Shown: positions 2,735 through 35,928, counted from the first letter of the stretch. The stretch: 64,000 nucleotides of DNA from Myxococcales bacterium (GCA_037445065.1 JBBILD010000002.1:160001-224000), one strand, 5' to 3'. Numbers and translations are program-made. The notes: generated from the letters alone by a model not told the origin.

Positions 2735-3715
2735 ATGCGACGTGAACGAGGACCCGTATCGCAATTCTTGGAGAGGCATTTTTTGCACTTCAACGCCGCG
2801 ACACTGGTCGACGCCGCGCGGGCGTATGAGGATCTGGTGGAACGGGGCGGTAAAATGCTGGTGGCTCTCGCTGGAGCGATGAGCACGGCCGAACTAGGGC
2901 GCAGCCTTGCCGAGATGATCCGCCAGAAGAAAGTGCACTTGATTTCGTGTACGGGTGCCAACCTTGAAGAAGACGTGATGAACCTGATCGCGCATTCGCA
3001 CTACAAACGGATTCCGAACTACAGAGAGTTGACGCCCGCAGACGAACTGCAGCTGTTGCGCCAGCAGTACAATCGGGTGACCGATACGTGCATCCCGGAA
3101 GAGGAGGCGTTCCGGCGGTTGCAGGCTTTGTTACTGGATGTCTGGACGCGGGCGCGGGACCGGGGGGAGCGGTTTTTCCCCCACGAGTACTTTTTCCAGC
3201 TCATTCGCGAGCGGCGGTTGGAGCCGTATTACGAAATCGATCCGCGCGATTCTTGGGTGGTGGCTGCGGCGGAGCACGATGTCCCGATGGTCGTTCCAGG
3301 GTGGGAGGACTCAACTTGTGGAAACATCTTTGCCGCCTACGTGATGAAAGAGGCTCTGCCAGTGGAAATCGTTCGCTCGGGCATCGAATACATGGTGTGG
3401 CTGGCGCTCTGGTACTCGCAGAATGCGCAGCCCCCCGGAGTTGGTTTTCTCCAAATCGGCGGTGGAATCGCTGGCGATTTCCCGATTTGCGTGGTCCCAT
3501 TGCTTCATCAGGACTTGGGGAAGCGAAACGTGCCCCTGTGGTCGTACTTTTGCCAGATCAGTGACTCGACCACGAGCTATGGTTCGTACTCAGGAGCGGT
3601 GCCCAATGAGAAAATCACCTGGGGCAAACTCGGTGTTGACACTCCTCGCTTCATGATCGAGAGCGATGCGACCATAGTGGCGCCTCTGTTATTTGCCTGG
3701 GTACTGGGCTGGTGA
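2735..3715 (+). CDS. Deoxyhypusine synthase-like protein (probable homospermidine/polyamine synthase)
   Basis: LAGAMSTAELG, SCTGANLEED, YNRVTD, IGGGIAGDF, SYSGAVPNEKITWGK; ATG 2735 follows AGGA. Confidence 0.9.
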   Translation: MRRERGPVSQFLERHFLHFNAATLVDAARAYEDLVERGGKMLVALAGAMSTAELGRSLAEMIRQKKVHLISCTGANLEEDVMNLIAHSHYKRIPNYRELTPADELQLLRQQYNRVTDTCIPEEEAFRRLQALLLDVWTRARDRGERFFPHEYFFQLIRERRLEPYYEIDPRDSWVVAAAEHDVPMVVPGWEDSTCGNIFAAYVMKEALPVEIVRSGIEYMVWLALWYSQNAQPPGVGFLQIGGGIAGDFPICVVPLLHQDLGKRNVPLWSYFCQISDSTTSYGSYSGAVPNEKITWGKLGVDTPRFMIESDATIVAPLLFAWVLGW

Positions 3716-3773
3716 GGTCGTGAGGAAGACCGAGAAGAGCTGCGTTGCGGGGAAGGGAAGGCAGGAGGGAGCG

Positions 3774-4937
3774 GTGAAGAGGCAGGTGCGAAGGCAAACG
3801 AGGACAGGCCGGATCGGGATGGTACTGTCGGGCGGAGGCGCACGGGGAGCGTTTCAAGTGGGGGTGTACGAACGGTTGCTCGCTGATCCACGGTTTGCCC
3901 GTGGACCGGTGGCCCTTTCTGGTACCTCCGCGGGGGCGATCAATGCTGCACTAATCGCGGCTGGGCGCTCACCCAAGGAGATGATGGAGTTCTGGAACTC
4001 GATCGCAGACAACCCTCCGGCAACAGTCAGCCGAGTGTTTTTTTCCTCGGCTCTGCGCACGTTTGTGACGCTTGCCGTTCGAGAAGGCATCCGCTCTCTG
4101 GTTCCCGGACGCCGCTGGACCTCCTTCTGGCAGCGATTGCGAAACCACATGCCCCCTAGGCCGGGAGATCTCCTCGCTTTTTGGGTGGAGTACCTGCTCG
4201 CCGTCCGCTTTGAACTTGTGAGCGACTTGCTATCGGGAATCCGCGAGCCGTTTCTTGCTGACACCCGCGAACTTCGTTCCCGACTCATTGAGTTCATTGG
4301 CTCCGAAACGGTTCCCACTGGTCGTGTGGACTTGGCCATTAACACCGTGGACGCGCACACGGGGCGGGTTGTGCGCTTTGTCACGAAGCGAACGCCTCTG
4401 ACTCGGCCCCCCGACTACCACATCGTTGATGCGATCACGGTGGACATGATCATGGCGAGTTGCTCCATTCCTCTACTGTTCCCCCCGGTTCGACTCGGGC
4501 CCCATTTGCTTTGGGACGGTGGGTTGCTCGTGAACACGCCGTTGGCCCCCGTCGTTGCGCTTGGCGCGGATGAGATTATCCCGGTGTTGGTTACCGAACC
4601 ACCAGAGGCAGAACTTCTGCCTTTAGGCCATTTTGGTCGCGCAGTGGAGCGGACGGTCGACAGCCTTCTGGAAAACGCATACAACGTGGACCGTAAGCTG
4701 CTCCTCGAGCGGAATCGTCTGGCCGCGTTGGATCCGGGCACGTATCGTACGGTGACGTTGTACGAGGCTGTACGGCCTGCGCGTGACGGCTTGTTTAACG
4801 CAGGCTCGTATTTGTACTTCGAGCGCTCGGTGCTGGCCGCTATGCATGGCGCCGGAGTGAAGGCTGCGGAGGCGTGGCTGGCCCGCGGCCCGGTCATTGA
4901 CCATCTCGAGGAGAGCACCGCCGGGGCCGCCGCGTAG
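3774..4937 (+). CDS. Patatin-like phospholipase
   Basis: LSGGGARG, GTSAG nucleophile, DGG motif; GTG start with GGAGG RBS (estimated). Confidence 0.9.
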   Translation: MKRQVRRQTRTGRIGMVLSGGGARGAFQVGVYERLLADPRFARGPVALSGTSAGAINAALIAAGRSPKEMMEFWNSIADNPPATVSRVFFSSALRTFVTLAVREGIRSLVPGRRWTSFWQRLRNHMPPRPGDLLAFWVEYLLAVRFELVSDLLSGIREPFLADTRELRSRLIEFIGSETVPTGRVDLAINTVDAHTGRVVRFVTKRTPLTRPPDYHIVDAITVDMIMASCSIPLLFPPVRLGPHLLWDGGLLVNTPLAPVVALGADEIIPVLVTEPPEAELLPLGHFGRAVERTVDSLLENAYNVDRKLLLERNRLAALDPGTYRTVTLYEAVRPARDGLFNAGSYLYFERSVLAAMHGAGVKAAEAWLARGPVIDHLEESTAGAAA

Positions 4938-22653: not shown

Positions 22654-23586
22654 ATGAAGCTCTCACCGCGGCACCTCGTGTGGGTCAATCTCGCTCTCTT
22701 AACGGTAGTCGCCTACTTGGCTGCCGCGGCAGTAAGCAGGGCTGTAGCGGCGCGCCTCGTTCCACCCCCGGTGGTTCGGCTGTCGCCTCCGCCGCCGCCC
22801 ATTGCAAAACCACCGAAACGACCCTTGGTCGCATACGCGGCGATCAGCACGCGAGATATCTTCAACCCGGCCAAGCCGGTTGAGGAGGCCAGGATCGAGG
22901 CTCCACCGCCCCCGACGAAACTGAATCTCAAGTTGTGGGGTGTTTCCATTCATTCCCAAGGACGGTCCCATTGCGTGATCGAAGATCTGTCGACCAGGAA
23001 GCAAGAAGTCTATCGGATCGGTGACACAGTGCCGGGTCCCGCTGTGGTGAAGGCAATCGAGTGGGAACGAGTCATCCTGGATCGGGGAGGCTTCGAGGAA
23101 ATCTTGGAGCTCGCGCAGCCAGCGGGAACAAGTGGAGTTGCCACTTCTGGGGCAGCGCGGCCGGTTCTCACTGCTTCTTTACCTCCGCCCGCCACGGACG
23201 CGGCGGTCACCGGCAGTCCCGGCGGCGCGGCCGTATCGGTCAATCCACGCATCCAACAGGTTTCGGAGAATGAGTACCACATCGACCGTGCGGAAGTGGA
23301 ACAGCAGTTGGACAACATGAACCAGCTTTTTACGCAGATCCGCGCGGTGCCCCATTTCGACGGCGGGAAATCTACGGGCTTCCGTCTCTTCGCGATCCGG
23401 CAGGGAAGCGTGTTCGATCAGCTCGGCCTGCGCAATGGAGACATTATCCAAAGCATTAACGGCCAGGAGCTTACGGATCCGGCAAAAGCGTTGGCGGTCT
23501 TCCAACAATTGCGTGATGCCACCGAGATCAAGGTGAGTGGGGTTCGAAATAAGCAGCCATTCGAGACGGTGTACCGAATTCGCTGA
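22654..23586 (+). CDS. gspC: Type II secretion protein C (HR + PDZ domains)
   Basis: N-terminal TM, RDIF, LKLWG HR domain, PDZ GLRNGDIIQSING; first gene of the cluster. Confidence 0.9.
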   Translation: MKLSPRHLVWVNLALLTVVAYLAAAAVSRAVAARLVPPPVVRLSPPPPPIAKPPKRPLVAYAAISTRDIFNPAKPVEEARIEAPPPPTKLNLKLWGVSIHSQGRSHCVIEDLSTRKQEVYRIGDTVPGPAVVKAIEWERVILDRGGFEEILELAQPAGTSGVATSGAARPVLTASLPPPATDAAVTGSPGGAAVSVNPRIQQVSENEYHIDRAEVEQQLDNMNQLFTQIRAVPHFDGGKSTGFRLFAIRQGSVFDQLGLRNGDIIQSINGQELTDPAKALAVFQQLRDATEIKVSGVRNKQPFETVYRIR

Positions 23587-23594
23587 GTCAGGGG

Positions 23595-26441
23595 ATGATA
23601 GGGATGGGCATGGGGAAGCTGTTGGCGACATACAAGAACATCGGGATGCTGGTGGCTGCTGCTTTGCTTGTTTTGACGCCTGGGCTTGGCGCCCAAGAGA
23701 CCCCGCCGGGCGGGGAAGAAGACAGCGCCAAGATCACGATGAACTTCCAGGACGTGGACATTGCCGTTTTGGTCAAGTTCATCAGCGACATCACCGGGAA
23801 GAACTTCATTGTGGATGAAAAAGTTCGCGGCAAAGTGACCATCATTTCACCCGGCAAAATCAGTGTGGACGAAGCGTACCTCGTCTTCCAGTCCGTTTTG
23901 CAGGTGAAGGGATTCACCACCGTACCGTCAGGGTCGATTATCAAGATTCTCCCGACAAAAGACGCAAAAACTTCGACCATCGACACCGTTCTTCCTGAAG
24001 CACGCCCGCAACCGCGGGACGAATACATCACGCGTTTGATTCGGCTGAAGTACGTGGACGCGAACAACATGGTGGCCATCCTGCAGCCACTAGCGTCACC
24101 TGACGGCTTGCTGGCGGCATACACGCCCACAAACACTTTGATTTTGATTGACACCGCCGCGCAGACCGATCGCTTGGCCAAGATCCTGAGCCAACTGGAT
24201 GTGGAAGGACAACAGCAGGAAATCGAAGTTGTGCGGCTGAACTATGCCTTTGCCGGGGATATCGCCGCTTTGTTGCAACAGTTACTGGAGGAGCCGACCG
24301 CGCCCGCGACGGGTGCGGCTCCTGCGACCCAACCCGGAGCGGCACCCGACGCGAGGTTGCGCCGTGGCACGGCCCCCCGGACTGGGGGCGCGGCAACGGG
24401 TTCCGCAATCAGTGGCGGTGTGACGCCGGAAAGGGCGTTCAAGATCATCCCTGACGAACGGACGAACTCGTTGATCTTAGTGGCTGGGCCGGCGGAAGCT
24501 CGGCGGATCAAGGACCTCATCGCTCGCCTGGACGTGCCCTTGCCATTAGGCACTGGGCGGATTCACGTGTACTATCTCAAGTACGCCAATGCTTTCGAAT
24601 TGATTCCTGTTTTGGCCTCTTTGGTGGGGGGAACCGGAGGAGGAATCGGCGGGTTCAGTCCGTTCGGTTTTGGTGGAATCGGTGGGCTCCGGGGAGGTTT
24701 TGGAAGTTTCGGGGGGGTGCGCGGTGGCTTCGGAGGGATCGGGGGTCTTGGCCGCTTCGGAGGAAGTAGCTTGGGGTTTGGAGGGTTTGGTGGCGGAGCA
24801 TTCGGCGGGTTTGGGGGTGGCCTCGGTTTTGGCGGAGTCGCGCCAGGCGTGGGGCTCGGTCTCGGGCAAACCGGGTTTGGCACGGCCGGGGCGTTAGCTG
24901 GGCGCCGGCCCGGACTCGCTGGTGCTACTGGTGCTGCTGGGACGGGTGCGGCGGCGGGTCAGCAAACTGAGTTCGAGGGGCAGGTTCGGATTAGTGCCGA
25001 TCCTGCAACCAATGCGCTGATCATTAACGCTTCCCCTCAAGACTTCGAGACGCTGCGCGAAGTGATCGAGAAGCTGGATGTCCGGCGTCGGCAGGTGTAC
25101 GTGGAAGCAATTATTGCCGAGGTGTCGCTTGATCTCACTCGGGAGCTGGGCATCGAGTTACAAGGTGCAACGGAAATTCCCAACGGCGTGGGTTTTGGCC
25201 GCACCAACTTGCGTGGTGACATCAATCAGCTTTTGAACCCCACCAACTTATCTGGCTTAGTGCTAGCGGCGGCAAGCTCCCAAACCGTCACGGTTAACGG
25301 AGTCACCATTCCTGCACAGCAGGCTCTTTTGCGCGCGCTGGAAAGCCGCTCCGACGCAAACATTTTGTCCGCGCCAACGGTGCTGACAACGGACAATCAG
25401 CCAGCGGAAATTGTTTCTGGACAGAACGTGCCCTTCATCGCGAGTCGGGCCACCAGTGACGTGAACTTGAGCAACACCTTTGCGACCATCGAGCGGCGGG
25501 ATGTGGGAATTACGCTGCGCCTCACTCCTCAGATCTCGGAGGGGGGGCAGGTTCGGTTGGACATCTTCCAAGAAGTCTCCGACGTGATTTCCAACGACCC
25601 GCAACTCGGCCCAACGACCACCATCCGGTCCGCCACCACAAGTGTGGTCACGCGAGACGGCCAGACGGTGGTCATCGGCGGTATCATGTTCGAAGCACGA
25701 GGGAAGAATGTGAGTAAAGTGCCCTTCTTGGGCGACGTCCCAGTGTTGGGGAATCTCTTCCGAACAGACTCCACGCGAAACCGCAAAACGAACCTGTTGA
25801 TCTTTCTGACCCCCCACATCATTCGTAACGAACGCGATCAGCGCAACGTGGCGGTAAACGAGCGGGAGCGCTTGTTGCGTCGCCCATTCGAAGAGATGGG
25901 CCAGCGACCACCCAACTGGGAACAGCTCAATACCCCGTCTTGGGAAGTTCGCCCGTCCATTGACGCTCCGGCTGAGCCTGAGGGGGAGAGCGAGAAACGG
26001 TCGCGTATTGAGATCCACCGCCCAAGTTCTGGAAACGGGGCAGGGGAGAGCACCAGGTCAAGAGCTGAAGAAAGAGGTTCTGCCAGTTTGAATTCCTCTG
26101 CGATTAGCGCGGCCCCACACAACCGTTATGTGTTGCTGGCGACGGTCTCGTCGAGCGGCAGCCCGCCGCAAAGCCTGGAAGGGAGTAATGGCCTTTTGGC
26201 GCTAGCCGTCCCCGCCTCGCTGCCACTTGCGCGTAGCTTCCAGAAGGGCCGCGTGTACCGATTCGTTGGCAATGGCTTCACGGCGAGCTACGTGTGTTTG
26301 GAGGTCTTTGAGGGTCCCAACGAGGCTTTCGCCGTGTATCCAGAGGGAATGCAAGTCAGCACGAACCCACCTAGCTTTCTGCATTGGCGTGAGCCAGTGG
26401 AGGCTTCTGTGCTCGATGACGCAAATTGGAGTGCCGGGTAG
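23595..26441 (+). CDS. gspD: Type II secretion secretin with Gly/Phe-rich N3 insert and C-terminal extension
   Basis: ITMNFQDVDI, DERTNSLI, ADPATNALII, QVYVEAII, KVPFLGDVPVLGNLF, LLIFLTPHII; exact start uncertain. Confidence 0.96.
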   Translation: MIGMGMGKLLATYKNIGMLVAAALLVLTPGLGAQETPPGGEEDSAKITMNFQDVDIAVLVKFISDITGKNFIVDEKVRGKVTIISPGKISVDEAYLVFQSVLQVKGFTTVPSGSIIKILPTKDAKTSTIDTVLPEARPQPRDEYITRLIRLKYVDANNMVAILQPLASPDGLLAAYTPTNTLILIDTAAQTDRLAKILSQLDVEGQQQEIEVVRLNYAFAGDIAALLQQLLEEPTAPATGAAPATQPGAAPDARLRRGTAPRTGGAATGSAISGGVTPERAFKIIPDERTNSLILVAGPAEARRIKDLIARLDVPLPLGTGRIHVYYLKYANAFELIPVLASLVGGTGGGIGGFSPFGFGGIGGLRGGFGSFGGVRGGFGGIGGLGRFGGSSLGFGGFGGGAFGGFGGGLGFGGVAPGVGLGLGQTGFGTAGALAGRRPGLAGATGAAGTGAAAGQQTEFEGQVRISADPATNALIINASPQDFETLREVIEKLDVRRRQVYVEAIIAEVSLDLTRELGIELQGATEIPNGVGFGRTNLRGDINQLLNPTNLSGLVLAAASSQTVTVNGVTIPAQQALLRALESRSDANILSAPTVLTTDNQPAEIVSGQNVPFIASRATSDVNLSNTFATIERRDVGITLRLTPQISEGGQVRLDIFQEVSDVISNDPQLGPTTTIRSATTSVVTRDGQTVVIGGIMFEARGKNVSKVPFLGDVPVLGNLFRTDSTRNRKTNLLIFLTPHIIRNERDQRNVAVNERERLLRRPFEEMGQRPPNWEQLNTPSWEVRPSIDAPAEPEGESEKRSRIEIHRPSSGNGAGESTRSRAEERGSASLNSSAISAAPHNRYVLLATVSSSGSPPQSLEGSNGLLALAVPASLPLARSFQKGRVYRFVGNGFTASYVCLEVFEGPNEAFAVYPEGMQVSTNPPSFLHWREPVEASVLDDANWSAG

Positions 26442-26450
26442 GTAACCGGA

Positions 26451-28163
26451 ATGGCGGTCGCAGTCAGCTCTTTGGAGTCGTTCTTACTCCAATACGGGCA
26501 CGTCAGCGCGGAAACGCTCGAGAAAGCTAGAGAGCGGCAACGGGACGGGAAAAACCTCGGCGACGTCCTGCTTGAGATGGGCGCCATTGATGGGGCGACC
26601 TGGGCGCGCGTGGTGGCGGACCATTACGGCCTCCCATTCTGCGACCATCTACCCGATGAGACAGCTGTGCTCGACTTGATCGAGCAGGTACCGATCAATT
26701 TTGCCAAGCGCTACTCGGTGCTGCCGGTGGCTCGCGAAGGGGACACCGTCGTGGTCGCGTGTGCAGACCCGAGTCAGATCGGCGCTTTGCACGACCTCCG
26801 CATTTTACTTGGCTGCCCGTTACGCGTGGTGGTAGCACCGGCGCAGGCAATCATCGATGCGATCAACCGAGCGTACGACACGATTACGGCTGGATCGGCA
26901 TCCGAGTTGATGGACGACCTGGATACCGAGCGGCTCGATTTGGAACTCGCTGACCTCGAGGAACCTAGGGACCTGCTCGATGCGGACGAGGAAGCACCCA
27001 TCATCCGGCTCGTGAACCAACTGATCTTCCAGGCGGTGAAAGACCGAGCAAGCGACATCCACATCGAGCCGTACGAACGGGATTTACACGTGCGCTTTCG
27101 AATCGACGGCATTCTTTACGACATCTTGTCGCCCCCGAAGCGTTTTCATCCGGTAATCATCTCGCGTGTGAAAGTAATGTCGGGGTTGAACATCGCGGAG
27201 AAGCGCCTGCCCCAAGATGGAAGAATTCGGATTCGGTTGGCTGGGAAGGACATTGATATTCGGGTCTCGATTGTACCCACCGCGCATGGGGAACGCGTGG
27301 TCATGCGGCTGTTGGACCGCGCCAGCACGTTGTTGCATCTTGAAGATTTGGGCCTCACGGGAGCGAAACTAGAAACGGTGAACCGACTCATCCGGCAGAG
27401 CCACGGCATCATCCTGGTGACAGGCCCGACCGGAAGCGGAAAAACGACGACGCTCTACGCCTGCTTGTCGAAAATCAACACGGTCGACAAAAACATCATC
27501 ACCATCGAGGATCCGGTCGAATACCAGCTAAAAGGGGTTGGCCAGATCCAGGTAAATCCGAAAATTGACTTAACGTTCGCCAGTGGGCTCCGTTCGATTC
27601 TCCGGCAGGACCCGGACGTGATCATGGTGGGCGAGATCCGCGACGTGGAAACTGCCGAAATTGCGATCCAGGCAGCGCTGACCGGTCACCTTGTATTCTC
27701 CACCCTGCACACGAACGATTCTTTCGGTGCAATGACCCGGCTGCTGGACATGGGAATCGAGCCATTTCTCGTTTCCTCCTCGGTCATTGCGGTGATGGCG
27801 CAGCGGCTCGTGCGGCGCGTGTGCGAGAACTGTCGCGTTGCGTATCGGCCCACCCGCGAAGAGATCGAAGAGATTGGCATTACTCCCCAGCAGTTAGGCG
27901 GACGAGAACTCTTCCGGCAAGGGCCCGGGTGCAGCCAGTGCAAAGGGAAGGGATATCGTGGGCGGACGGGGATTCATGAGTTACTGGTCGTGGACGACGA
28001 AATCCGTTCTCTGGTCATGAAAAACGCAGACGCGGCGTCCATTCGCCGCACTGCAACCGCGCACGGCATGAACACGCTCCGCCAAGACGGAGCAGATAAA
28101 GTACTAGCCGGAATCACTACAGTGGAGGAAGTGTTGCGCGTGACCCAGGACGATATCGTTTGA
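26451..28163 (+). CDS. gspE: Type II secretion ATPase
   Basis: ASDIHIEP, Walker A GPTGSGKT, TIEDPVE, LRQDPDVIMVGEIRD, CxxC...CxxC. Confidence 0.97.
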   Translation: MAVAVSSLESFLLQYGHVSAETLEKARERQRDGKNLGDVLLEMGAIDGATWARVVADHYGLPFCDHLPDETAVLDLIEQVPINFAKRYSVLPVAREGDTVVVACADPSQIGALHDLRILLGCPLRVVVAPAQAIIDAINRAYDTITAGSASELMDDLDTERLDLELADLEEPRDLLDADEEAPIIRLVNQLIFQAVKDRASDIHIEPYERDLHVRFRIDGILYDILSPPKRFHPVIISRVKVMSGLNIAEKRLPQDGRIRIRLAGKDIDIRVSIVPTAHGERVVMRLLDRASTLLHLEDLGLTGAKLETVNRLIRQSHGIILVTGPTGSGKTTTLYACLSKINTVDKNIITIEDPVEYQLKGVGQIQVNPKIDLTFASGLRSILRQDPDVIMVGEIRDVETAEIAIQAALTGHLVFSTLHTNDSFGAMTRLLDMGIEPFLVSSSVIAVMAQRLVRRVCENCRVAYRPTREEIEEIGITPQQLGGRELFRQGPGCSQCKGKGYRGRTGIHELLVVDDEIRSLVMKNADAASIRRTATAHGMNTLRQDGADKVLAGITTVEEVLRVTQDDIV

Positions 28164-28238
28164 GCGTTGCGCGCGGACGATCCCTTGGAGTTACGGCGAG
28201 TTTTTCGAGAGAAGTTTCGCAGAGCTGGATGATCGGCC

Positions 28239-29477
28239 ATGCCGGTGTATGCGTATCGCGGGTTTAACGCGGCGGGTCGGGCGATCGGAGGCATCGTTGA
28301 TGCGGACACGCCGAAAGGAGCCAGGCAAAAGCTCCGACGCGAGGGGATTTTCCCAACCGAACTGGTCGAGCAACAGCGACAAGTACCAAAACGTGCGGCG
28401 ACCGAGTCAACCACCTGGCAGTCTTTTACCCGTTATTTCGAGCGAATTTCTCCGGAAGAGCTGGCCCTCTTAACCCGGCAACTAGCAACCCTGGTGGGTG
28501 CCCGGGTTCCTTTGGTAGACTCGCTCTCGGCGCTCATCGAGCAGTCAGAGCACGCTCGCACAAAGCGCATCCTCTCCCAAGTTCGCGAGCAGGTGACCGA
28601 GGGCTCGTCACTTGCGGATGCTCTGAAGGCACACCCGCGGGTGTTCAGCGACTTGTACGTAAACATGGTGCGAGCCGGCGAGGCGTCGGGTGCCCTCGAG
28701 GCGGTCCTTTTGCGACTCGCGGATTACACGGAAAGTTACGCCCAACTCCGTTCGAAAGTGCGCTCGGCACTCACGTATCCGACGCTCATGGCAGTAACGG
28801 GAGCGGCGATTCTCATGTTTTTGCTAGCCTACGTCGTTCCGAAGATCACGAAGATTTTTGCCGAGAATCAGGCAACGTTGCCTCTCATGACGCGCATTCT
28901 GCTGGCGGTGAGTGGCTTTGCCCAGGAGTACTGGTGGCTGATGGTTTTTGTCCTGCTGACGGCAGGGGTCTCGGTGCAGATGAGCCGGCGCACGGAGGCC
29001 GGGCGCTTGCGATTCGACCGCTACATGTTGGCCATCCCATACCTGGGGACGCTGTTTAAAAAGGTGGCTCTTGCGCGCTTTGCGCGGACGCTCGCCACGC
29101 TTCTGAAGAGCGGTGTCAATTTGCTTACGGCGCTGGACATCGCGAAGAATGTCGTAAACAATTCCCTTCTGAGTCGGGCGATCGAAGAAGCGCGAGAAAG
29201 TATCCGGGAAGGACAAAGTATCGCGCCGCCGCTCAAGAAGAGCGGCCTGTTCCCGCCCATGCTGGTGCACATGATCGCGGTCGGGGAAAGAAGCGGGGAG
29301 CTCGAAAACATGCTGAGTAAGGCCGCCGAGGCATACGACAACGACGTATCCACTTCGGTTGCGACCATCACGAGCGTGCTCGAGCCGATGATGATTTTGT
29401 TCGGGGGGGCGGTTGTGTTGTTCATTGTGCTCGCCATCCTGTTGCCGATTTTCGAGATGAACCAGTTGGTTCGTTGA
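28239..29477 (+). CDS. gspF: Type II secretion inner-membrane protein F
   Basis: TRQLATL, MVRAGEASG, ALTYP, VGERSGEL, LEP. Confidence 0.96.
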   Translation: MPVYAYRGFNAAGRAIGGIVDADTPKGARQKLRREGIFPTELVEQQRQVPKRAATESTTWQSFTRYFERISPEELALLTRQLATLVGARVPLVDSLSALIEQSEHARTKRILSQVREQVTEGSSLADALKAHPRVFSDLYVNMVRAGEASGALEAVLLRLADYTESYAQLRSKVRSALTYPTLMAVTGAAILMFLLAYVVPKITKIFAENQATLPLMTRILLAVSGFAQEYWWLMVFVLLTAGVSVQMSRRTEAGRLRFDRYMLAIPYLGTLFKKVALARFARTLATLLKSGVNLLTALDIAKNVVNNSLLSRAIEEARESIREGQSIAPPLKKSGLFPPMLVHMIAVGERSGELENMLSKAAEAYDNDVSTSVATITSVLEPMMILFGGAVVLFIVLAILLPIFEMNQLVR

Positions 29478-29572
29478 CCCGTCAGGCGTTGAAGGACCCA
29501 TGTCGGCTGTTAGCCTAGCGCTCGCAATTCGTCGGTCCGTAAGTAAGGTTTCACAAGGAGGGCGAAAGGGAA

Positions 29573-29986
29573 ATGCGTCGGCTGTCCGGTTCTGCTGGCT
29601 TCACCTTGATCGAAATCATGGTGGTAGTGTTCATTCTGGGCCTGTTGGTCACCCTGGTCGCGCCGAGGATCATCGGGCGGACCGACGAGGCACGCCGAAC
29701 CAAGGCGGCCGCGGATATCAAAGCCATCGAGCAAGCGTTGAACCTCTTTAAGCTGGACAATGGGTTCTATCCAAGCACCCAGGATGGCCTGCAGGCTCTC
29801 GTCCAGCGCCCGGCAAACGCTCGCAACTGGAACCCTGACGGTTACCTGGACCAGATTCCGGTGGATCCGTGGGGCAACCCCTACGTGTATTTCTCCGACG
29901 GCACGCACATCGTGATCAAGTCATACGGGGCAGACGGTCAGGAGGGCGGCGAAGGCAAGAATGCCGACATTGACAACCGCGGCTGA
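29573..29986 (+). CDS. gspG: Major pseudopilin
   Basis: G|FTLIEIMVV, FKLDNGFYP, DPWGNPY, SYGADG. Confidence 0.97.
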   Translation: MRRLSGSAGFTLIEIMVVVFILGLLVTLVAPRIIGRTDEARRTKAAADIKAIEQALNLFKLDNGFYPSTQDGLQALVQRPANARNWNPDGYLDQIPVDPWGNPYVYFSDGTHIVIKSYGADGQEGGEGKNADIDNRG

Positions 29987-30539
29987 CACCCGGGCTGGTT
30001 TCCGAGCGGTATGGAAGCGGGCGGACGATCGCGGTTTCACGCTCCTGGAAATCTCGTTGATCCTCTTGCTCCTGTCGGTGGTACTGGTGGTCGTGGTGCC
30101 CCGGTTCCGCGATCGCAGTCGGGTGGAGCTGTTCGCTCACGCCAACCGCTTGCAGTTGACCTACCGGCTGCTGCGTAACCAGGCCGTCCTCGACGGGGTT
30201 GCGTACCGGCTGTACTTCGATTTGGACCAGCAGCGGTACTGGGTGACGCCGGACGAACCCGGCGCCATCGAGCTGCGGCAGTTCGTTGCAAACCTTGGAT
30301 CGCTCGCACGGGGGGTGGCGCTGGAAGGGGACGTGCAGCTCTTGGACGTCAGCCTCCCGCTGGACGGAGTCAAGCTGGCACAGGGCTCCTTGTATGCCAT
30401 TTTTTACGCCGATGGCTCGGTTGATCCCACCGTGGTTCACCTGGGAACAGCGCAGGAGGCTTACACGTTGTGGTTCGACCCGCGAGCGCAAAAACTGCGG
30501 GGTCGCCTTGGTTACTGGGAGCCGAGTTATGGGCGCTGA
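29961..30539 (+). CDS. gspH: Minor pseudopilin H
   Basis: RG|FTLLE prepilin motif; position in cluster. Confidence 0.8.
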   Translation: MPTLTTAADTRAGFRAVWKRADDRGFTLLEISLILLLLSVVLVVVVPRFRDRSRVELFAHANRLQLTYRLLRNQAVLDGVAYRLYFDLDQQRYWVTPDEPGAIELRQFVANLGSLARGVALEGDVQLLDVSLPLDGVKLAQGSLYAIFYADGSVDPTVVHLGTAQEAYTLWFDPRAQKLRGRLGYWEPSYGR

Positions 30540-30924
30540 TGGTGGTTGGCGAGATCGGCCGACCGGCTTCACATTACTGGAGGTCCTGGTCGCCCTTGCC
30601 GTGGTCGCCATCGCGTTCGTGACCTTACTCGGTTGGCATGCGCGTAACATTCGAACGATCGCGTACAACCAAAACCTATCTCGCGCCGTGTTGCTCACCC
30701 GCGAGCGCGCTAGCTTGGTCCAGTTCCGGGTTTTGCAAGATGGAATCGAGGGGGCCAGAAACGAGGCGGGGCCGATCGACGGCTATCCGGGTTTTTACTT
30801 TGACCAGGAGGTCTTCCCTACCGGAATCGAAGAGCTACGCCAGGTCGTGGTGCGTGTGTACTGGGACCCGCGCAATCCGTCTGCATGTGAGGTGATGTTC
30901 TTTGTTCGCGACCCGATGTTCTGA
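30529..30924 (+). CDS. gspI: Minor pseudopilin I
   Basis: G|FTLLEVLVAL, LRQVVVRVYW; position in cluster. Confidence 0.85.
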   Translation: MGADGGWRDRPTGFTLLEVLVALAVVAIAFVTLLGWHARNIRTIAYNQNLSRAVLLTRERASLVQFRVLQDGIEGARNEAGPIDGYPGFYFDQEVFPTGIEELRQVVVRVYWDPRNPSACEVMFFVRDPMF

Positions 30925-31666
30925 ACGCGCTTGCGCAGGATTCACGTTGCTCGAGCTGTTGCTGGCGATCACGATCTTCGCGATTTTCGCCACCGCGATT
31001 TATGGCGTGCTTGCGCGTACCTTAGAGGGCAAGGAACGGGCCGAAGCGAAAGCGGAGCTGTTCGCTGCGGGTCGCGATGCAGTGATGCGAATCGCAGACG
31101 ATCTAGAGCGTGCCCTTCCGCCTCTGCCGGGTAATCGCAATCAGGTTTGGTTGATTGGGGTCCCAGGGAATGACGCTGTTCCTACCGACCAAATCGGCTT
31201 TGTCATGGACGTGCGCCGAGAGCGGAGTGCGAGCGGCCGCAGAGGTGGGCGGGTGTTCGTGTCGTACCTGCTGGAACCGATGCCGGACATACCCCGTGCG
31301 TTCGCGCTGTTGCGTCACGAGGAGTTACTGCTGGATCCGCTCGCACAAGCAATGGCTGAGGGTGAAGCGGGAGCAGAAAACCAAGACACTTCTCTCGTGA
31401 ACGAGGTCTACCTGGTAGATCGCGTTGCGGGGCTGCGCTTCCGTTATTTGGATCCCGCTTCCGGCGAGTGGGTGAACGCCTGGGACACCACTGCGGCAGT
31501 TCAACCGGGTGAAGCTCCCGTCCCTCTTCCTCCGGTGGTCGAAGTGCAGCTCTTCTTGTTCGACGACACGGGAGGATATGTGGACTTCAGTACACGGGTC
31601 GATCTGCCACTGTACTCGCCACCGCCCACCCCCGCTCCAGGAGGAGTGCGTGCACCGTTGGGGTGA
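30902..31666 (+). CDS. gspJ: Minor pseudopilin J
   Basis: AG|FTLLELLLA, RIADDL, WVNAWD, LPPVVEV. Confidence 0.85.
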   Translation: MFATRCSERACAGFTLLELLLAITIFAIFATAIYGVLARTLEGKERAEAKAELFAAGRDAVMRIADDLERALPPLPGNRNQVWLIGVPGNDAVPTDQIGFVMDVRRERSASGRRGGRVFVSYLLEPMPDIPRAFALLRHEELLLDPLAQAMAEGEAGAENQDTSLVNEVYLVDRVAGLRFRYLDPASGEWVNAWDTTAAVQPGEAPVPLPPVVEVQLFLFDDTGGYVDFSTRVDLPLYSPPPTPAPGGVRAPLG

Positions 31667-32873
31667 GCACAAGCGTGACAACGAGCGTGGGGCGGCTTTG
31701 CTGCTTGCGATCGCGGTGGTGGCTTTACTGACCATCACCGTCTCGGAGTTTTTCTTTTCGGCAGAGGTGGACTCGCGCATGGCGCGCAATTCCGTGCACA
31801 GCCTGCAAGCGTCTCTTCTGGCTCGATCCGGGATTGCCATCGGCGAGGCACTCCTTGCGAAGGATGAGGATCCAGTAACGGACTCGTTTCTAGAAGAGTG
31901 GTGCCCGGCACAAGCGAGAGAGGGCATGGCGTGTCAGATCGAAGACGGTGCCGGGCTGGTGCAGATTCCGGAGGGAATGCGCCTACGCGTCGAGATTTGG
32001 GACGAGAGCGCAAAAATTAACGTGAATCTCACGCGACCCCAAAATCAAAACGAGTGGCGCTTGGGGAATATGGCCGCGGACCCCCGTTCTGCGCCGCAGC
32101 GGTATCAATCATGGCTCTTTGCTCTAGGTAGGGTGCTGCAAGCGCGAGGGATTGGAGAGGATCTCATTCTCGCGTTAGACCAATACTGGAGCCAACTGTA
32201 TGAAGTGTACTTTGGGCCCTTGTCTCCCGCGGGTAGCGGCTCTGGAGCCGCTGCGACACCGACCCCACCCTCCCTCGCCGCTACGCCAGGAGCGACGCCT
32301 CCGCCCTTGACCACGCTGTATTTCAGTTCCCTAGACGAGCTTGTAGCGGTAAACGGCTTTCTGCGTAGCTCCGATCTACCGCGGATTCGTTCTGTGGTGA
32401 CGGCAATCGGCTGGCCGTTTCAAGCACAAATTAACGCCAACACCGCTTCCCGCGAGGTCTTGCAGGCCATCATTGGGGATAGCGAAGTGGTAGAAACCCT
32501 GATTGCAGAGCGGCAAAATCAACCGCTGACAGCAGCCACGGTCGTGACCATGCTGAACAGCAGTGGGACGCTGCAAGACCCCCAATATCGGAACTCTCGG
32601 GTGATGGTTGGCGCGCGCAGCAATGTCTTCTGGATTCGAGCCAGTGCCGTCGTCAACATCGATCCCGTGACTGGCATGGGTGGCGTGAGCCGAAGTGCAG
32701 AAATGGTGGTCCGGCGTGAGCCGAGGCCGGTGCAACAAGGCGCTGGAACGCTTCATCGGTGGAAGCTAACGCGTCTCTACTGGCAGAAGTCGGGTGGTGC
32801 GATTCTGTTTCGCCCCGATCCTGGCGATAGCGGTGAGGCAAGTGGTGAACGGAGCTCAGACGTTCGGTTCTGA
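31650..32873 (+). CDS. gspK: Minor pseudopilin K
   Basis: ERG|AALL, DESAKINVN, INANTA; GTG start after GGAGGA. Confidence 0.88.
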   Translation: MHRWGEHKRDNERGAALLLAIAVVALLTITVSEFFFSAEVDSRMARNSVHSLQASLLARSGIAIGEALLAKDEDPVTDSFLEEWCPAQAREGMACQIEDGAGLVQIPEGMRLRVEIWDESAKINVNLTRPQNQNEWRLGNMAADPRSAPQRYQSWLFALGRVLQARGIGEDLILALDQYWSQLYEVYFGPLSPAGSGSGAAATPTPPSLAATPGATPPPLTTLYFSSLDELVAVNGFLRSSDLPRIRSVVTAIGWPFQAQINANTASREVLQAIIGDSEVVETLIAERQNQPLTAATVVTMLNSSGTLQDPQYRNSRVMVGARSNVFWIRASAVVNIDPVTGMGGVSRSAEMVVRREPRPVQQGAGTLHRWKLTRLYWQKSGGAILFRPDPGDSGEASGERSSDVRF

Positions 32874-32891
32874 AAACACGACGGAAACATT

Positions 32892-34409
32892 ATGCCACAG
32901 CGAGTCTTAGCGCTCGACATCGAGCCTACGGCGATCAAAGCCGCGGTGGTCGAGACATCGTTCCGTGAGTTTCGCATCGCTGGCTTCTACCGAGTGCCTG
33001 TTCCGCCTGGGCAGCCTGTTGCGGATGTGCTGCGCAGCTTTGTGGCGAACAATGGGCTCGAAGGGTGCGTGGTGCTTTCGGCCCTATGTGGGGAGAAGGT
33101 CACATGGCGCACCTTGTTTCTGCCGTTCCGGGACCGCAAGCGGCTCGACCAGACCGTTCCGTTTGAACTGGAAACCCAGGTACCTTTCGACCTGGATGAT
33201 GTCGTGATCACGTATCAGCTCTTGCAGCGAGATAAAGCAGGCAGCACGGTTTTGGCTGCCTTGGTGCAGCGCAAAGACCTGCAAGATCACTTGGACCTGT
33301 TACAGGGCGCCGGTCTCGATCCGAAGGTTGTGGACCTCAGTCCCCTCGTTTGCCTAAATGTTCTCGACTTACTCGCGCCGGAGCCTCCACCCACGTGCGT
33401 CTTTCTTTGTGGCGACCCACACGAACTAACCGTGGCACTGCGGCGGGACGGCACCTTGGTTGGCATTCGAACAATCACTCCCGCGCTAAAGGTGGAAGAG
33501 CCGAGCGCGGAGCAATCCGCTGATAACGGACATGCCGTGGTGGCATCGCAGTGGGCGGAAGAGGTGACTCGAGAAGTTCGCTGGACATTGCTCGCACTCA
33601 ATGGGGCGCCGCTCGAGCCAGGAACCCCCTGCGTGGTGGCAGGAGAGGGAATTTACTTTGACTGGTTGGGAAACCGGCTTGCGGCGCTCGAGTTGAGCGT
33701 GCAGCGCCTCGAGCAAGGGGCGATGCGAATGGTCTCCAGCGAGGTGCTAGGCGCGGTGTCTGCGTTTGTAACGCCTCTCGGCTTGGCACTCCGTGAAATC
33801 CAGCCAGAGCGTGCTTTTGGGGTGAATTTCCGGCAGGGGGAATTCGCGTACCAGCGCGGAAGAGAAGAGGTCCGTAGCGCGCTCGTGCGAACCGGTACGA
33901 TCGCCTTCGCGGCGGTCGTGCTGTTGCTGGCGAACGCCTACCTGGAGTACCGGGGGCTACAGGCCCGGCTCGACGCGGTCAATGCCCAAGTTCGATTTGT
34001 TTTTCGCGAGACGCTGCCTGATGTCCAGCGGATCGTGGATGAGCGCAGGCAACTGCAAGAAGAGATTGATGCGGTGGAAAAGCGACTCAAGTTGCTCGGC
34101 AGTGTTGCTCCACCCAGCGGGGCGACTGCGATCGACGCTTTGCACGCGATCAGTGCGGCGCTCCCCGAGACTTTGAAGTTAGAAGTGGACGAATACGTGA
34201 TGGATACACAGGAAATCAAGATTCGCGCGCACACGGATTCGTTAGACACGCCAAACGCCATTCGCGAGGCAATTGCTGGCAGTAGGTACTTCGCCGATGT
34301 GCAGGTGAAAGACATCAAGTCCGCGCCGGATGGGCGAGTCGATTTCCGCATGATTCTGGTGCTCAATCGCGGCGGTATCCCAGCGCCGCTTCCCTCAGGT
34401 CGGTTATGA
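32892..34409 (+). CDS. gspL: Type II secretion protein L (PilM/PilN-like)
   Basis: LALDI actin-like N-terminus, LPFRD-VPFELE, NFRQGEF, TM helix, periplasmic domain. Confidence 0.88.
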   Translation: MPQRVLALDIEPTAIKAAVVETSFREFRIAGFYRVPVPPGQPVADVLRSFVANNGLEGCVVLSALCGEKVTWRTLFLPFRDRKRLDQTVPFELETQVPFDLDDVVITYQLLQRDKAGSTVLAALVQRKDLQDHLDLLQGAGLDPKVVDLSPLVCLNVLDLLAPEPPPTCVFLCGDPHELTVALRRDGTLVGIRTITPALKVEEPSAEQSADNGHAVVASQWAEEVTREVRWTLLALNGAPLEPGTPCVVAGEGIYFDWLGNRLAALELSVQRLEQGAMRMVSSEVLGAVSAFVTPLGLALREIQPERAFGVNFRQGEFAYQRGREEVRSALVRTGTIAFAAVVLLLANAYLEYRGLQARLDAVNAQVRFVFRETLPDVQRIVDERRQLQEEIDAVEKRLKLLGSVAPPSGATAIDALHAISAALPETLKLEVDEYVMDTQEIKIRAHTDSLDTPNAIREAIAGSRYFADVQVKDIKSAPDGRVDFRMILVLNRGGIPAPLPSGRL

Positions 34410-35005
34410 GATTCGACTGGAATCTTCTCGCCCGGTACATTGATCGTCTTGCACCGCGGGAAAAGCTGCTGCTGCTCGTCGCAGCCGCGGTCACCGTCCT
34501 TATCCTCGGCTACTCGTTTGTTTGGGACCCGTTGCAGGCTGGCGCCGCACAATTGTCCCGAAGGATCAGTTTGCGGGAGCGAGAATTGGAGGAAATCCTG
34601 CGCCAGCGGGAACAATACCTCGAACTGCTCCGCCAGTTGGAAGCGTACGGCGACATTTCCGAGATGGACCCGAATTTCAATTTGTTGGGTTACTTGCAGG
34701 GCGTTGTGACTGCAGCCGTGAGTCGCGAGAAAATCACGTCTCTGAACCCGACCACGCGGCCAAAGGCAGAGGCTCCTGAATTCGTCGAGGAAATGGTCGA
34801 GATCAAACTAGCGGGGGTATCGCTCCCACAGATTGTGGATCTGTTGCATCGGGTGGAGAAAGGAGAGCACCCGCTGCATTTTAGCCGGGTGTCCATTAAG
34901 AAGCGCGTTAACGATCCGTACTCCTTTGACGTGCAGGCTACCGTGGCGGTGCTCAAGCACGCCGAAAAGCCCGCGGAAAAAGCCGTGTCGCGAGGAGAGA
35001 GCTGA
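34406..35005 (+). CDS. gspM: Type II secretion protein M
   Basis: LAPREK + TM + WDP, coiled coil; ATGA coupling to gspL. Confidence 0.85.
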   Translation: MRFDWNLLARYIDRLAPREKLLLLVAAAVTVLILGYSFVWDPLQAGAAQLSRRISLRERELEEILRQREQYLELLRQLEAYGDISEMDPNFNLLGYLQGVVTAAVSREKITSLNPTTRPKAEAPEFVEEMVEIKLAGVSLPQIVDLLHRVEKGEHPLHFSRVSIKKRVNDPYSFDVQATVAVLKHAEKPAEKAVSRGES

Positions 35006-35928
35006 TGCGGGCTCCACAGTTGCGGCTGCCTTGGGCAACGTGGTTTTCTTCACGCTGGGTCCCTGATTTCTTGCTGCGGCGCAGCACGTGGTTGTACCTG
35101 TCGTACACGTTTGCAGTGTTTCTAATCGCGCTGGTCGTCACCTTCCCGCACGACTTGTTGATCCAGCGGGCGGTCCGGCACTTGGACCGCGGGCCGTTGG
35201 CGTTGCACGTCAATGGAGCCGGCGTTTCGCTCTTGCGCGGATACTGCGTTAGCGGCGTGCGGTTGGGAAACAGTGACGGCAACCGCCCGCCGCTACTCGA
35301 GATCTCGACGGTGTGGGCCCGCCCGAGCATTCGCGAATGGTTGCGGGGGAATTTTTATGCGGCGGCAGTAGGCGCTGAACTCTACGGAGGAGCCCTCCAA
35401 GGAAGCGTCCTGTACCAAGACGTCGGCTTGTCAGGTGCAGTCGAGTGGCACGGACTTCAGCTCGGACGTTACCGGACACTGCAGAGCCAGCTGGAAGAAG
35501 GTCAGATTACGGGCGTGGTTTCCGGTGACTTGGCCTTCGAAATCCGCGGGCAGAATTTCCAACAGGGGCAAGCCAACGGTGAAATCGTGATCGAGTCCGC
35601 TGCCTTACAAGACGTGAAGTTGGGCGGCTGGCCCATTCCGAACGTGCAACTGAAGCAGATCAAGGCCAAGATCAAGGTCGTTCCTGGACGGATCGAACTT
35701 GCCGACTTGGTGGCGACCGGCGACCTAAGCGTTCAGGGTGGGGGCCAGATCACGGTGCGCGAACCGTTTGGTGAAAGCGCGCTCAATCTTCGTCTGACAA
35801 TTGCCCCGACACCCCAAACCCCAGATACCCTAAAAGCTGCGCTGGCGCTACTACCGCGCCCAGCGGGAGGGAAGCCGGACAGTCCGATCACGATCGCCGG
35901 TACGTTGCTCAAGCCGAAGCTGCGCTAA
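35005..35928 (+). CDS. gspN: Type II secretion protein N
   Basis: TM-TFP, AELYGG, beta-rich body, C-terminal ITIAGTLLKP. Confidence 0.8.
   Translation: MRAPQLRLPWATWFSSRWVPDFLLRRSTWLYLSYTFAVFLIALVVTFPHDLLIQRAVRHLDRGPLALHVNGAGVSLLRGYCVSGVRLGNSDGNRPPLLEISTVWARPSIREWLRGNFYAAAVGAELYGGALQGSVLYQDVGLSGAVEWHGLQLGRYRTLQSQLEEGQITGVVSGDLAFEIRGQNFQQGQANGEIVIESAALQDVKLGGWPIPNVQLKQIKAKIKVVPGRIELADLVATGDLSVQGGGQITVREPFGESALNLRLTIAPTPQTPDTLKAALALLPRPAGGKPDSPITIAGTLLKPKLR

Follow-up and report, generated by a model that had tools for sequence, protein, structure and literature searches.

A conserved, glycine-rich disordered expansion of the N3 loop in a type II secretion system secretin and its possible use as a soft plug of the channel

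[quoted passage not shown] Both questions are touched by a locus in a 64,000-nucleotide stretch of DNA from a Myxococcales bacterium (GCA_037445065.1, JBBILD010000002.1:160001-224000; this whole stretch is called the window, and positions are counted from its first letter). The open reading frame (ORF) at 23595..26441 (+) encodes a 948-residue GspD, the secretin of the T2SS, in which LIPVLASLV and TEFEGQVRISADPATN are separated by a 113-residue insert (residues 345-457, nt 24627-24965), about half of it glycine and studded with phenylalanines. What is such a tract doing in a secretin? Our analysis identifies it as the variable N3 loop of the T2SS secretin, here expanded, intrinsically disordered and kept by selection. 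Judging by analogy, it may well serve as a soft, cohesive and compressible plug or gasket that fills the GspD vestibule, a reading to which we give about an even chance.

The original prediction, which was made from the sequence, had described an insert of about 113 residues with 12 FG dipeptides and no acidic residues, and the insert was found exactly so at nt 24627-24965 (+). It consists of 54 Gly, 13 Phe, 12 Ala, 8 Leu, 5 Thr, 5 Arg and 4 Ser, with 3 each of Ile, Pro, Val and Gln; Asp, Glu, Lys and His are absent, and the 5 arginines are the sole charged residues of the 113. The insert has 12 FG dipeptides where 10,000 shufflings of its residues average 6.2 (p = 0.0003), and GF dipeptides were not enriched (9 versus 6.2, p = 0.09). 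The FG core (residues 354-429, nt 24654..24881, +) holds all 13 phenylalanines (354-428), the 12 FG dipeptides and three RGG motifs, and ends in GQTGFG, and the tail (residues 430-457, nt 24882..24965, +) is rich in Ala, Gly and Thr, contains RRPG and is free of Phe. The linkers from one aromatic residue to the next have a median length of 4.5 residues.

At the DNA level the tract is not repetitive, as had been predicted from its varied codons. Glycine is encoded by 17 GGG, 14 GGA, 14 GGT and 9 GGC codons and phenylalanine by 7 TTT and 6 TTC. Tandem Repeats Finder (minimum score 30) detected no tandem repeat under the FG part, and an origin by DNA slippage or tandem repetition was rejected for this reason; the sole weak repeat in the insert (9 nt x 2.4, 24919-24940) lies in the Ala/Gly tail. 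Codon use is peculiar: GGC makes up 17% of the glycine codons in the insert, 39% in the rest of the gene and 41% in the long ORFs of the genome, and the corresponding shares of TTT among phenylalanine codons are 54%, 24% and 38%. The departure of the glycine codons from the genome gives a hand-calculated chi-square of about 13 with 3 degrees of freedom. Avoidance of repetitive DNA is one guess at the cause.

The identity of the host protein is clear. GspD scored 576.9 bits against the NCBIfam equivalog model TIGR02517 (cut-off 351.35), residues 49-752 being covered, and the Pfam domains follow in the order typical of the family, N0 (PF21305, 49-118), three Secretin_N stretches (PF03958) and the secretin domain (PF00263, 581-744), in agreement with the secondary structure predicted by AlphaFold2. 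The best relatives in the PDB are 5wln, 5wq7 and 6hcg, which are 15-chain GspD/PulD entries. The third Secretin_N stretch (residues 324-500) spans the insert, and because it encloses residues 345-457 the insert lies inside the N3 ring domain (residues 322-494, nt 24558..25076, +). An AlphaFold2 run with a 127-sequence alignment resolved N3 into a strand (322-327), a helix (333-344), the insert, two strands (465-469 and 474-479) and a helix (481-494). The flanks of the insert have predicted local distance difference test (pLDDT) values of about 87-92, residues 348-457 are predicted as coil with pLDDT 31-48, and the coil continues to residue 464. A hidden folded domain, for example one with polyglycine-II packing, found no support in a coil of such low pLDDT.

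The host family and its variable N3 loop are already known. By definition the variable loop connects helix 1 of N3 to its strand 2 (PMC6155069), and the insert occupies precisely this segment. Solved GspDs can be aligned up to the insert and again after it, and have some 20 residues at its place; the 5wq7 chain passes from residue 264 to 287. On these models the insert is an expansion of the known variable N3 loop of secretins, from about 20 residues in solved GspDs to 113 here. The predicted placement in the loop between helix 1 and strand 2 of N3 was thus borne out by Pfam and AlphaFold2, and published structures link this loop to a lumenal "N3 constriction", a term that reportedly originated with Yan et al. 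2017 (NSMB). In the phage secretin pIV, the disordered N3 loops are directed at the pore centre, and the lumen is 74 Å wide at N3 (PMC8563730); a legend in a review has the N3 constriction sites open when substrate passes (PMC9251779). By homology to the solved secretins, the insert would face the lumen of the GspD channel.

A word-indexed search yielded 120 homologues of 49-99% identity (counts out of 121 add the query); those with names, at 79-81% identity, come from metagenome-assembled genomes of 'Candidatus Binatia' and from 'bacterium HR30', which puts the organism in or close to the class Binatia. All 120 carry a loop at the same place, 87-136 residues long with a median of 110. Median glycine content is 51% in the loops versus 7% in the rest of the protein. 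Lysine is missing from every one of the 120 loops, Asp and Glu from 66 of them, and acidic residues are few overall. Arginine accounts for 3-11% of the loop in all 120 homologues, RGG occurs in 107/121, and the median proline content is 0.9%. At least four Phe plus Tyr residues were counted in 113/120 loops and at least eight in 69/120, while seven have fewer than four aromatic residues; an aromatic residue is followed by Gly in 896 of 1015 cases.

Spacing in these loops is far from random. Neighbouring hydrophobic residues are rare (the observed/expected ratio is 0.12 for spacing 1, 0.22 for spacing 2 and, among aromatics, 0.0 for direct neighbours), spacings of 3 and 5 are preferred, and for aromatics a spacing of 5 is enriched 2.5-fold. 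The aromatic linkers of the homologues have a median of 6 residues (interquartile range 4-11, n=120). Phenylalanine itself varies: Tyr arrays (GGYGG) stand in its place in P0015, P0043 and P0052, and mainly Leu, Ile or Met in others. Outside glycine, identity of the loop to the query falls to 14-33% where the remaining protein is 54-76% identical. The original prediction had expected an F/G pattern kept while the sequence diverges. The composition has indeed been conserved in the 120 homologues, but Phe has been exchanged for Tyr, Leu, Ile and Met, and in Binataceae the pattern is one of Gly and Met.

Two short motifs recur within sub-clades, GQ[TSMG]G[FLIM]G in 63/121 loops and [FAS]RGG[RQG]LGQ[RQ] in 25/121. 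In the query's sub-clade GQ[TS]GFG lies about two-thirds along the loop, and in a more distant sub-clade FRGGRLGQ[RQ]GG lies near the loop start. These motifs may be specific contact sites.

Beyond this clade, 1.84 billion cluster representatives were searched exhaustively with HMMER; the best 150 of the 48,153 hits were analysed. Clean loops were obtained from 143 (P0133 and P0197 offered no anchor; in P0157, P0188, P0212, P0242 and P0268 mis-anchoring swallowed a whole N domain). These loops range from 11 to 112 residues with a median of 31, and fall into 79 of 35 residues or fewer, 24 rich in Ser, Thr, Asn or Gln, 14 long Gly-rich ones (at least 60 residues and at least 35% Gly) and 26 others. 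The original prediction was to count as refuted by orthologues with Ser/Thr/Asn-rich loops without Phe enrichment, and this is partly what was seen: outside the clade most GspD loops are short or rich in Ser, Thr, Asn or Arg. Three of the same 150 best representatives, P0204 (5532 residues), P0212 (5131) and P0268 (1666), resemble secretins but are giants: 45, 37 and 9 stretches matched, respectively, and long stacks of N-type domains precede a C-terminal secretin barrel.

Named genomes were surveyed at 77 loci, from which L003, L005 and L053 (no upstream anchor), L006, L013, L037 and L047 (fragments) and L070 and L071 (mis-anchored) were excluded. Nine of the 14 Binatia/Binataceae loops measure 98-116 residues with at least 37% Gly plus Phe, Tyr or Met; the remaining five (63-94 residues) are Arg/Ser-rich or mixed. 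Loops of the Nitrospirota type are 17-25 residues long (9/9), those of Bdellovibrionota 69-88 and those of Myxococcales/Polyangia 23-40. Locus L015 of an 'uncultured proteobacterium' (region 3001-3915), which groups with Binataceae loci on the tree described below, has a loop of almost nothing but Gly and Met, with 28 Met in 120 residues in GMGMGGMG arrays. A Gly/Met-rich version of the loop was also observed at L020, L021, L026 and L034. Taking the Gly/Met relatives into account, the conserved property appears to be glycine combined with a flexible hydrophobic side chain, not phenylalanine as such.

A FastTree phylogeny of 249 secretin cores, from which the loop columns were excluded, required 14 changes of the Gly-rich state versus a mean of 70 for shuffled labels; on this unrooted tree, built by a quick method, gains and losses are indistinguishable. 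Of the Gly-rich rows, 47 make up a single pure clade that includes the query's relatives, 10, 7 and 5 fall into three clades of the Binataceae type, and 15 are scattered singly. When the insert alone was submitted to a language-model look-up, the clusters that came back were of Secretin_N proteins, most commonly from Verrucomicrobiota, with weak scores of 0.77-0.81 (lead threshold 0.9).

Whether the loop is under selection could be judged from a related strain, represented by a contig from the same study but another sample, which covers 24300-25300 with 55 substitutions and no gaps; two further runs, X2 and X5, covered parts of this stretch only and were left out of account. Forty of the 55 substitutions were listed. 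Among these, 27 fall in the insert, where they affect 26 codons, 21 synonymously and 5 non-synonymously, and every one of the 13 beyond it is synonymous. S371G, I382A, G384S, L385F and A444G, the five replacements, are exactly the loop differences of P0002, a homologue with 12 differences from the query in 948 positions. Our own estimate of dN/dS for the insert, from rough site counting, is about 0.1-0.15. The excess of synonymous over non-synonymous codon changes (21 versus 5) indicates that the loop is under purifying selection, although it is more tolerant of change than its flanks. An assembly artefact was also rejected, as the loop is present in 120 independent homologues and the contig of the second sample crosses the insert gap-free.

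The tract is unique in its genome. In the 3.79-Mb assembly (GC 62.9%), 27,089 stop-to-stop ORFs of at least 80 residues were scanned for 50 successive residues containing 20 or more Gly and 4 or more aromatics, and gspD alone had them; the 40-mer richest in Gly among these ORFs is likewise the GspD insert. A genome-wide Gly or GC bias was rejected as a cause, no second such tract being present among the 27,089. The second secretin of the genome (contig C31, ORF amino-acid offset 5915, frame 0, +, 755 residues) is PilQ-like with a short N3 loop, and inspection of its N3 region by eye, with weak anchors, disclosed no Gly tract, which suggests that the expansion is specific to the T2SS secretin.

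These data bear on the idea that the loop has no function and simply drifted long and Gly-rich in a GC-rich lineage. The N3 loop is after all the most variable part of secretins, as the 11-112 residues and very diverse make-up of the 143 usable representatives illustrate, its Gly-rich state changes at least 14 times on the tree, and short loops suffice in model organisms. Drift does not, however, readily account for the preponderance of synonymous changes, for loops that in 120 homologues vary little in length and keep their composition, free of Lys and nearly free of Asp and Glu, or for the non-random hydrophobic spacing. Nor does it fit with the lack of a similar tract in the 27,088 other ORFs, with the absence of a DNA repeat able to drive expansion, or with a glycine codon use that departs from that of the genome (GGC 17% versus 41%). 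We consider a functionless expansion improbable and, because of the selection data, the weakest of the rival explanations.

If the loop has a function, its location offers a clue. Secretins are 15-mers, and the loop would leave and rejoin N3 on the channel-facing side; about 146 kDa of chain should then occupy the periplasmic vestibule under the central gate. The chain can be regarded as a sticker-and-spacer polymer, roughly half Gly, with single hydrophobic or aromatic stickers (here Phe) 2-5 residues apart and with RGG arginines. Liquid-like cohesion is considered to be promoted by Arg-aromatic pairs and by aromatics at even spacing, and polyglycine in water collapses. A tick glycine-rich protein has been reported to phase-separate (PMC11794139). 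By this likeness in composition, fifteen loops would probably form a dense, self-cohesive yet compressible filling, in effect an enlarged N3 constriction. The loops would plug the idle channel and would close like a gasket around the pseudopilus or the cargo pushing through.

How crowded such a filling could be was estimated from volumes. The insert has a mass of 9.7 kDa, and 15 copies amount to 146 kDa and about 169,000 cubic ångströms. With heights that are assumed and diameters taken from the phage secretin pIV, the volume amounts to 1.13 times that of an N3 lumen of 74 x 35 Å, and an assumed chamber of 90 x 60 Å under the gate and an assumed N1-N3 vestibule of 75 x 120 Å would be filled to 0.44 and 0.32, respectively; if held within one or the other of these last two spaces, the loops would reach about 460-630 mg/mL. 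By this arithmetic the 15 loops would have to overlap wherever they are placed, and passing cargo would have to displace them.

Several observations speak against a soft plug. The volumes depend on the borrowed and assumed dimensions just given, and the lumenal placement on homology to loops that the solved structures leave unresolved. A filling so dense might be expected to impede the export of folded proteins. The 5 arginines per loop do not match the charge-free PEX13 and GLFG pattern, aromatic enrichment in the clade is modest (median Phe+Tyr+Trp 7.3% in the loops versus 5.5% in the rest of the protein), and in some homologue loops the sticker role is carried by Leu or Met. Finally, loops of 35 residues or fewer are sufficient for most GspDs (79 of the 143 usable representatives).

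The same volumes can be turned to another account, in which the loop is a structural strap that threads out between the N-domain rings and steadies their stacking or touches GspC, peptidoglycan or neighbouring subunits, since the total loop volume exceeds that of the N3 lumen. [quoted passage not shown] The conserved sub-motifs (63/121 and 25/121) also resemble docking sites more than bulk material. A strap, however, would hardly need 87-136 residues or evenly placed stickers, it would not be expected to be about half Gly or to diverge fast at its non-Gly positions, and AlphaFold2 shows no ordered element in the loop. A strap seems to us quite unlikely.

A more demanding use of the same cohesion would be a selective meshwork of the FG/YG type, which excludes bystander periplasmic proteins and admits only cargo, or a pseudopilus tip, that bears hydrophobic or aromatic patches fitting it, in the way that PEX5 and nuclear transport receptors are admitted elsewhere. 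The composition that suggests a plug suggests this equally. Moreover, Phe and Tyr interchange among the homologues (P0015, P0043 and P0052), as they do among PEX13 homologues, and arginine is present and lysine absent in all 120 loops. Arg-aromatic pairs are the cohesive ones in the phase-separation literature. A selective phase would also speak to the substrate recognition of the T2SS, stated to be unexplained (PMC9251779). On the other hand, the T2SS has a force-driven piston and a hard gate, which would make a passive selective phase superfluous. Neither a receptor-like partner nor a cargo motif came to light, although no search was aimed at them. The range of stickers, extending to Leu and Met, points to cohesion or elasticity of a general kind more than to recognition of FG as such, and the estimated density, at least 270 mg/mL, exceeds that of the PEX13 gels described (PMC9795577). 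Selection by a meshwork is in our opinion unlikely, and the soft plug or gasket remains the reading we favour.

The loop is not the only unusual part of this GspD. A second, smaller disordered loop (residues 235-268, nt 24297..24398, +; pLDDT <50), rich in Ala, Pro, Thr, Gly and Arg, was predicted in N2, between helix 1 and strand 2, the same position as that of the N3 insert. With a disordered loop in both N2 and N3, two stacked rings would add floppy chain to the lumen. Past the secretin beta-barrel and gate domain (residues 581-744, nt 25335..25826, +; PF00263, E 1.6e-49), AlphaFold2 and the homologue columns show a helix, a disordered linker (residues 796-839, window coordinates 25980-26111, +) and a beta-rich, clade-specific C-terminal domain (residues 843-947, nt 26121..26435, +). 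This domain appears to stand where classical GspDs of the Klebsiella and Vibrio types carry the pilotin-binding S-domain. It is kept in the close homologues, with W931, W945 and Y915-P916 near-invariant, and when folded alone gave a pLDDT of 93.3 and a predicted template modelling score of 0.84. It had no match in Pfam and no clear fold match in the PDB (Foldseek best E 0.55; VIA-align best Z 4.1, with tied rows).

This apparent replacement of the C-terminus by a clade-specific domain of no known fold, which co-occurs with the loop throughout the close homologues, leads to a further explanation, namely that in a lineage whose GspD seems to lack the classical S-domain, cohesive loops gather the monomers and help 15-mer formation or insertion into the outer membrane. 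Self-associating low-complexity chains do raise local concentration. N3, though, has a hydrophobic interface and serves in ring building as it is (PMC6155069), and an aid to assembly appears improbable.

The genes around gspD are those of a complete-looking T2SS operon, gspC-D-E-F-G-(minor pseudopilins)-L-M-N, which extends from 22654 to 35928 on one strand. Directly 5' of gspD lies gspC (22654..23586, +), with T2SSC and PDZ domains (PF11356, PF17820). Downstream, 26451..35928 (+) contains gspE, F and G, the minor pseudopilins (I/J/K-like) and gspL, M and N, recognized by the Pfam families T2SSE, T2SSF, T2SSG, N_methyl, T2SSJ, T2SSK, T2SSL, T2SSM and T2SSN, the matches for J, K and N being below Pfam's own cut-offs.

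How does the loop compare with other systems in which disordered chains occupy a conduit or bear compression? Close in make-up is the YG domain of PEX13 in the peroxisomal import pore, which the original prediction had named. In that domain (Gao et al. 2022), aromatics are spaced about 4 residues apart by Gly/Ser linkers without charged residues, their number and position vary, a change of Tyr to Phe is tolerated and one of Tyr to Ser is not, and at 40 mg/mL the material forms a gel, which keeps out large probes (PMC9795577). Both are disordered aromatic/Gly tracts on the wall of a conduit for folded proteins. The insert shares with it the aromatic spacing (median linker 4.5 residues in the query), the lack of acidic residues and the interchange of Phe and Tyr, but not the freedom from charge, as the query has 5 Arg and the 120 homologues 3-11% Arg. 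Pfam and NCBIfam scans of GspD detected none of the domains of PEX13 (amphipathic helix, transmembrane segment, SH3) that would indicate homology. Unlike the YG domain, the insert is periplasmic and tethered at both ends, it contains Arg in RGG motifs, some of its relatives use Leu or Met, and transport through its channel is driven by a piston past a separate hard gate.

With the FG nucleoporins, the insert has in common FG dipeptides (12) in a disordered chain (pLDDT 31-48) of low charge (5 charged residues of 113), which would line a channel for folded cargo and is present in many copies per pore. Its linkers are much shorter and almost pure Gly, the pore is far smaller, and there is no homology: the host is a bacterial GspD, and the clusters nearest to the insert are, at weak scores, those of Secretin_N and not nucleoporins. 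We know of no transport receptors for the GspD loop. FG linkers are said to exceed those of YG domains in length (PMC9795577). A selective barrier resembling that of the nuclear pore, as the original prediction proposed, is possible by analogy. In its widest form the idea would be that the N3 loops of Binatia, and by convergence those of several other environmental phyla, form a cohesive condensate that seals the vestibule and passes only folded cargo driven by the pseudopilus, a third independent invention after nuclear pores and PEX13; we find this rather doubtful.

The mechanical side of a plug or gasket recalls abductin, the compressible elastomer of the scallop hinge, whose repeat is given as GGFGGMGGGX, with 58% Gly and 1% Pro (PMC9999432). 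The secretin loops likewise have Gly blocks of 2-3 residues split by single Phe or Met (median 51% Gly and 0.9% Pro), and those of Binataceae are rich in Gly, Met and Phe. The query has neither a DNA tandem repeat nor a decamer array, and the loop, unlike abductin, is not a secreted material and has no evident cross-linking residues; the likeness is one of composition only.

The nearest counterparts are the variable N3 loops of other secretins. In a full-text literature search that covered few subscription journals, no paper was found on a Gly/aromatic secretin loop of 100 or more residues conserved across a class, and a paper on myxobacterial and cyanobacterial GspD in slime secretion mentions neither N3 loops nor glycine tracts. 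The feature appears to be limited to poorly studied environmental lineages and to be absent from model proteobacteria, which would explain the lack of papers. The known loops (PulD 288-303, InvG 217-267 and that of pIV) are likewise disordered or unresolved, and are directed at the pore centre or have been put forward as the periplasmic constriction. If the favoured reading is true, about 146 kDa of selected, disordered Gly/aromatic chain would add a soft-matter element to a gate so far described as rigid hairpins, and would offer a small, genetically tractable bacterial system in which to try out ideas about the nuclear pore and the peroxisome. Compared with known N3 loops of about 16-51 residues, the GspD insert is set apart by its 113 residues, by a composition of about half Gly with evenly spaced Phe and neither acidic residues nor Lys, by the maintenance of this composition over a whole class, and by the mass of chain that it would bring to each channel.

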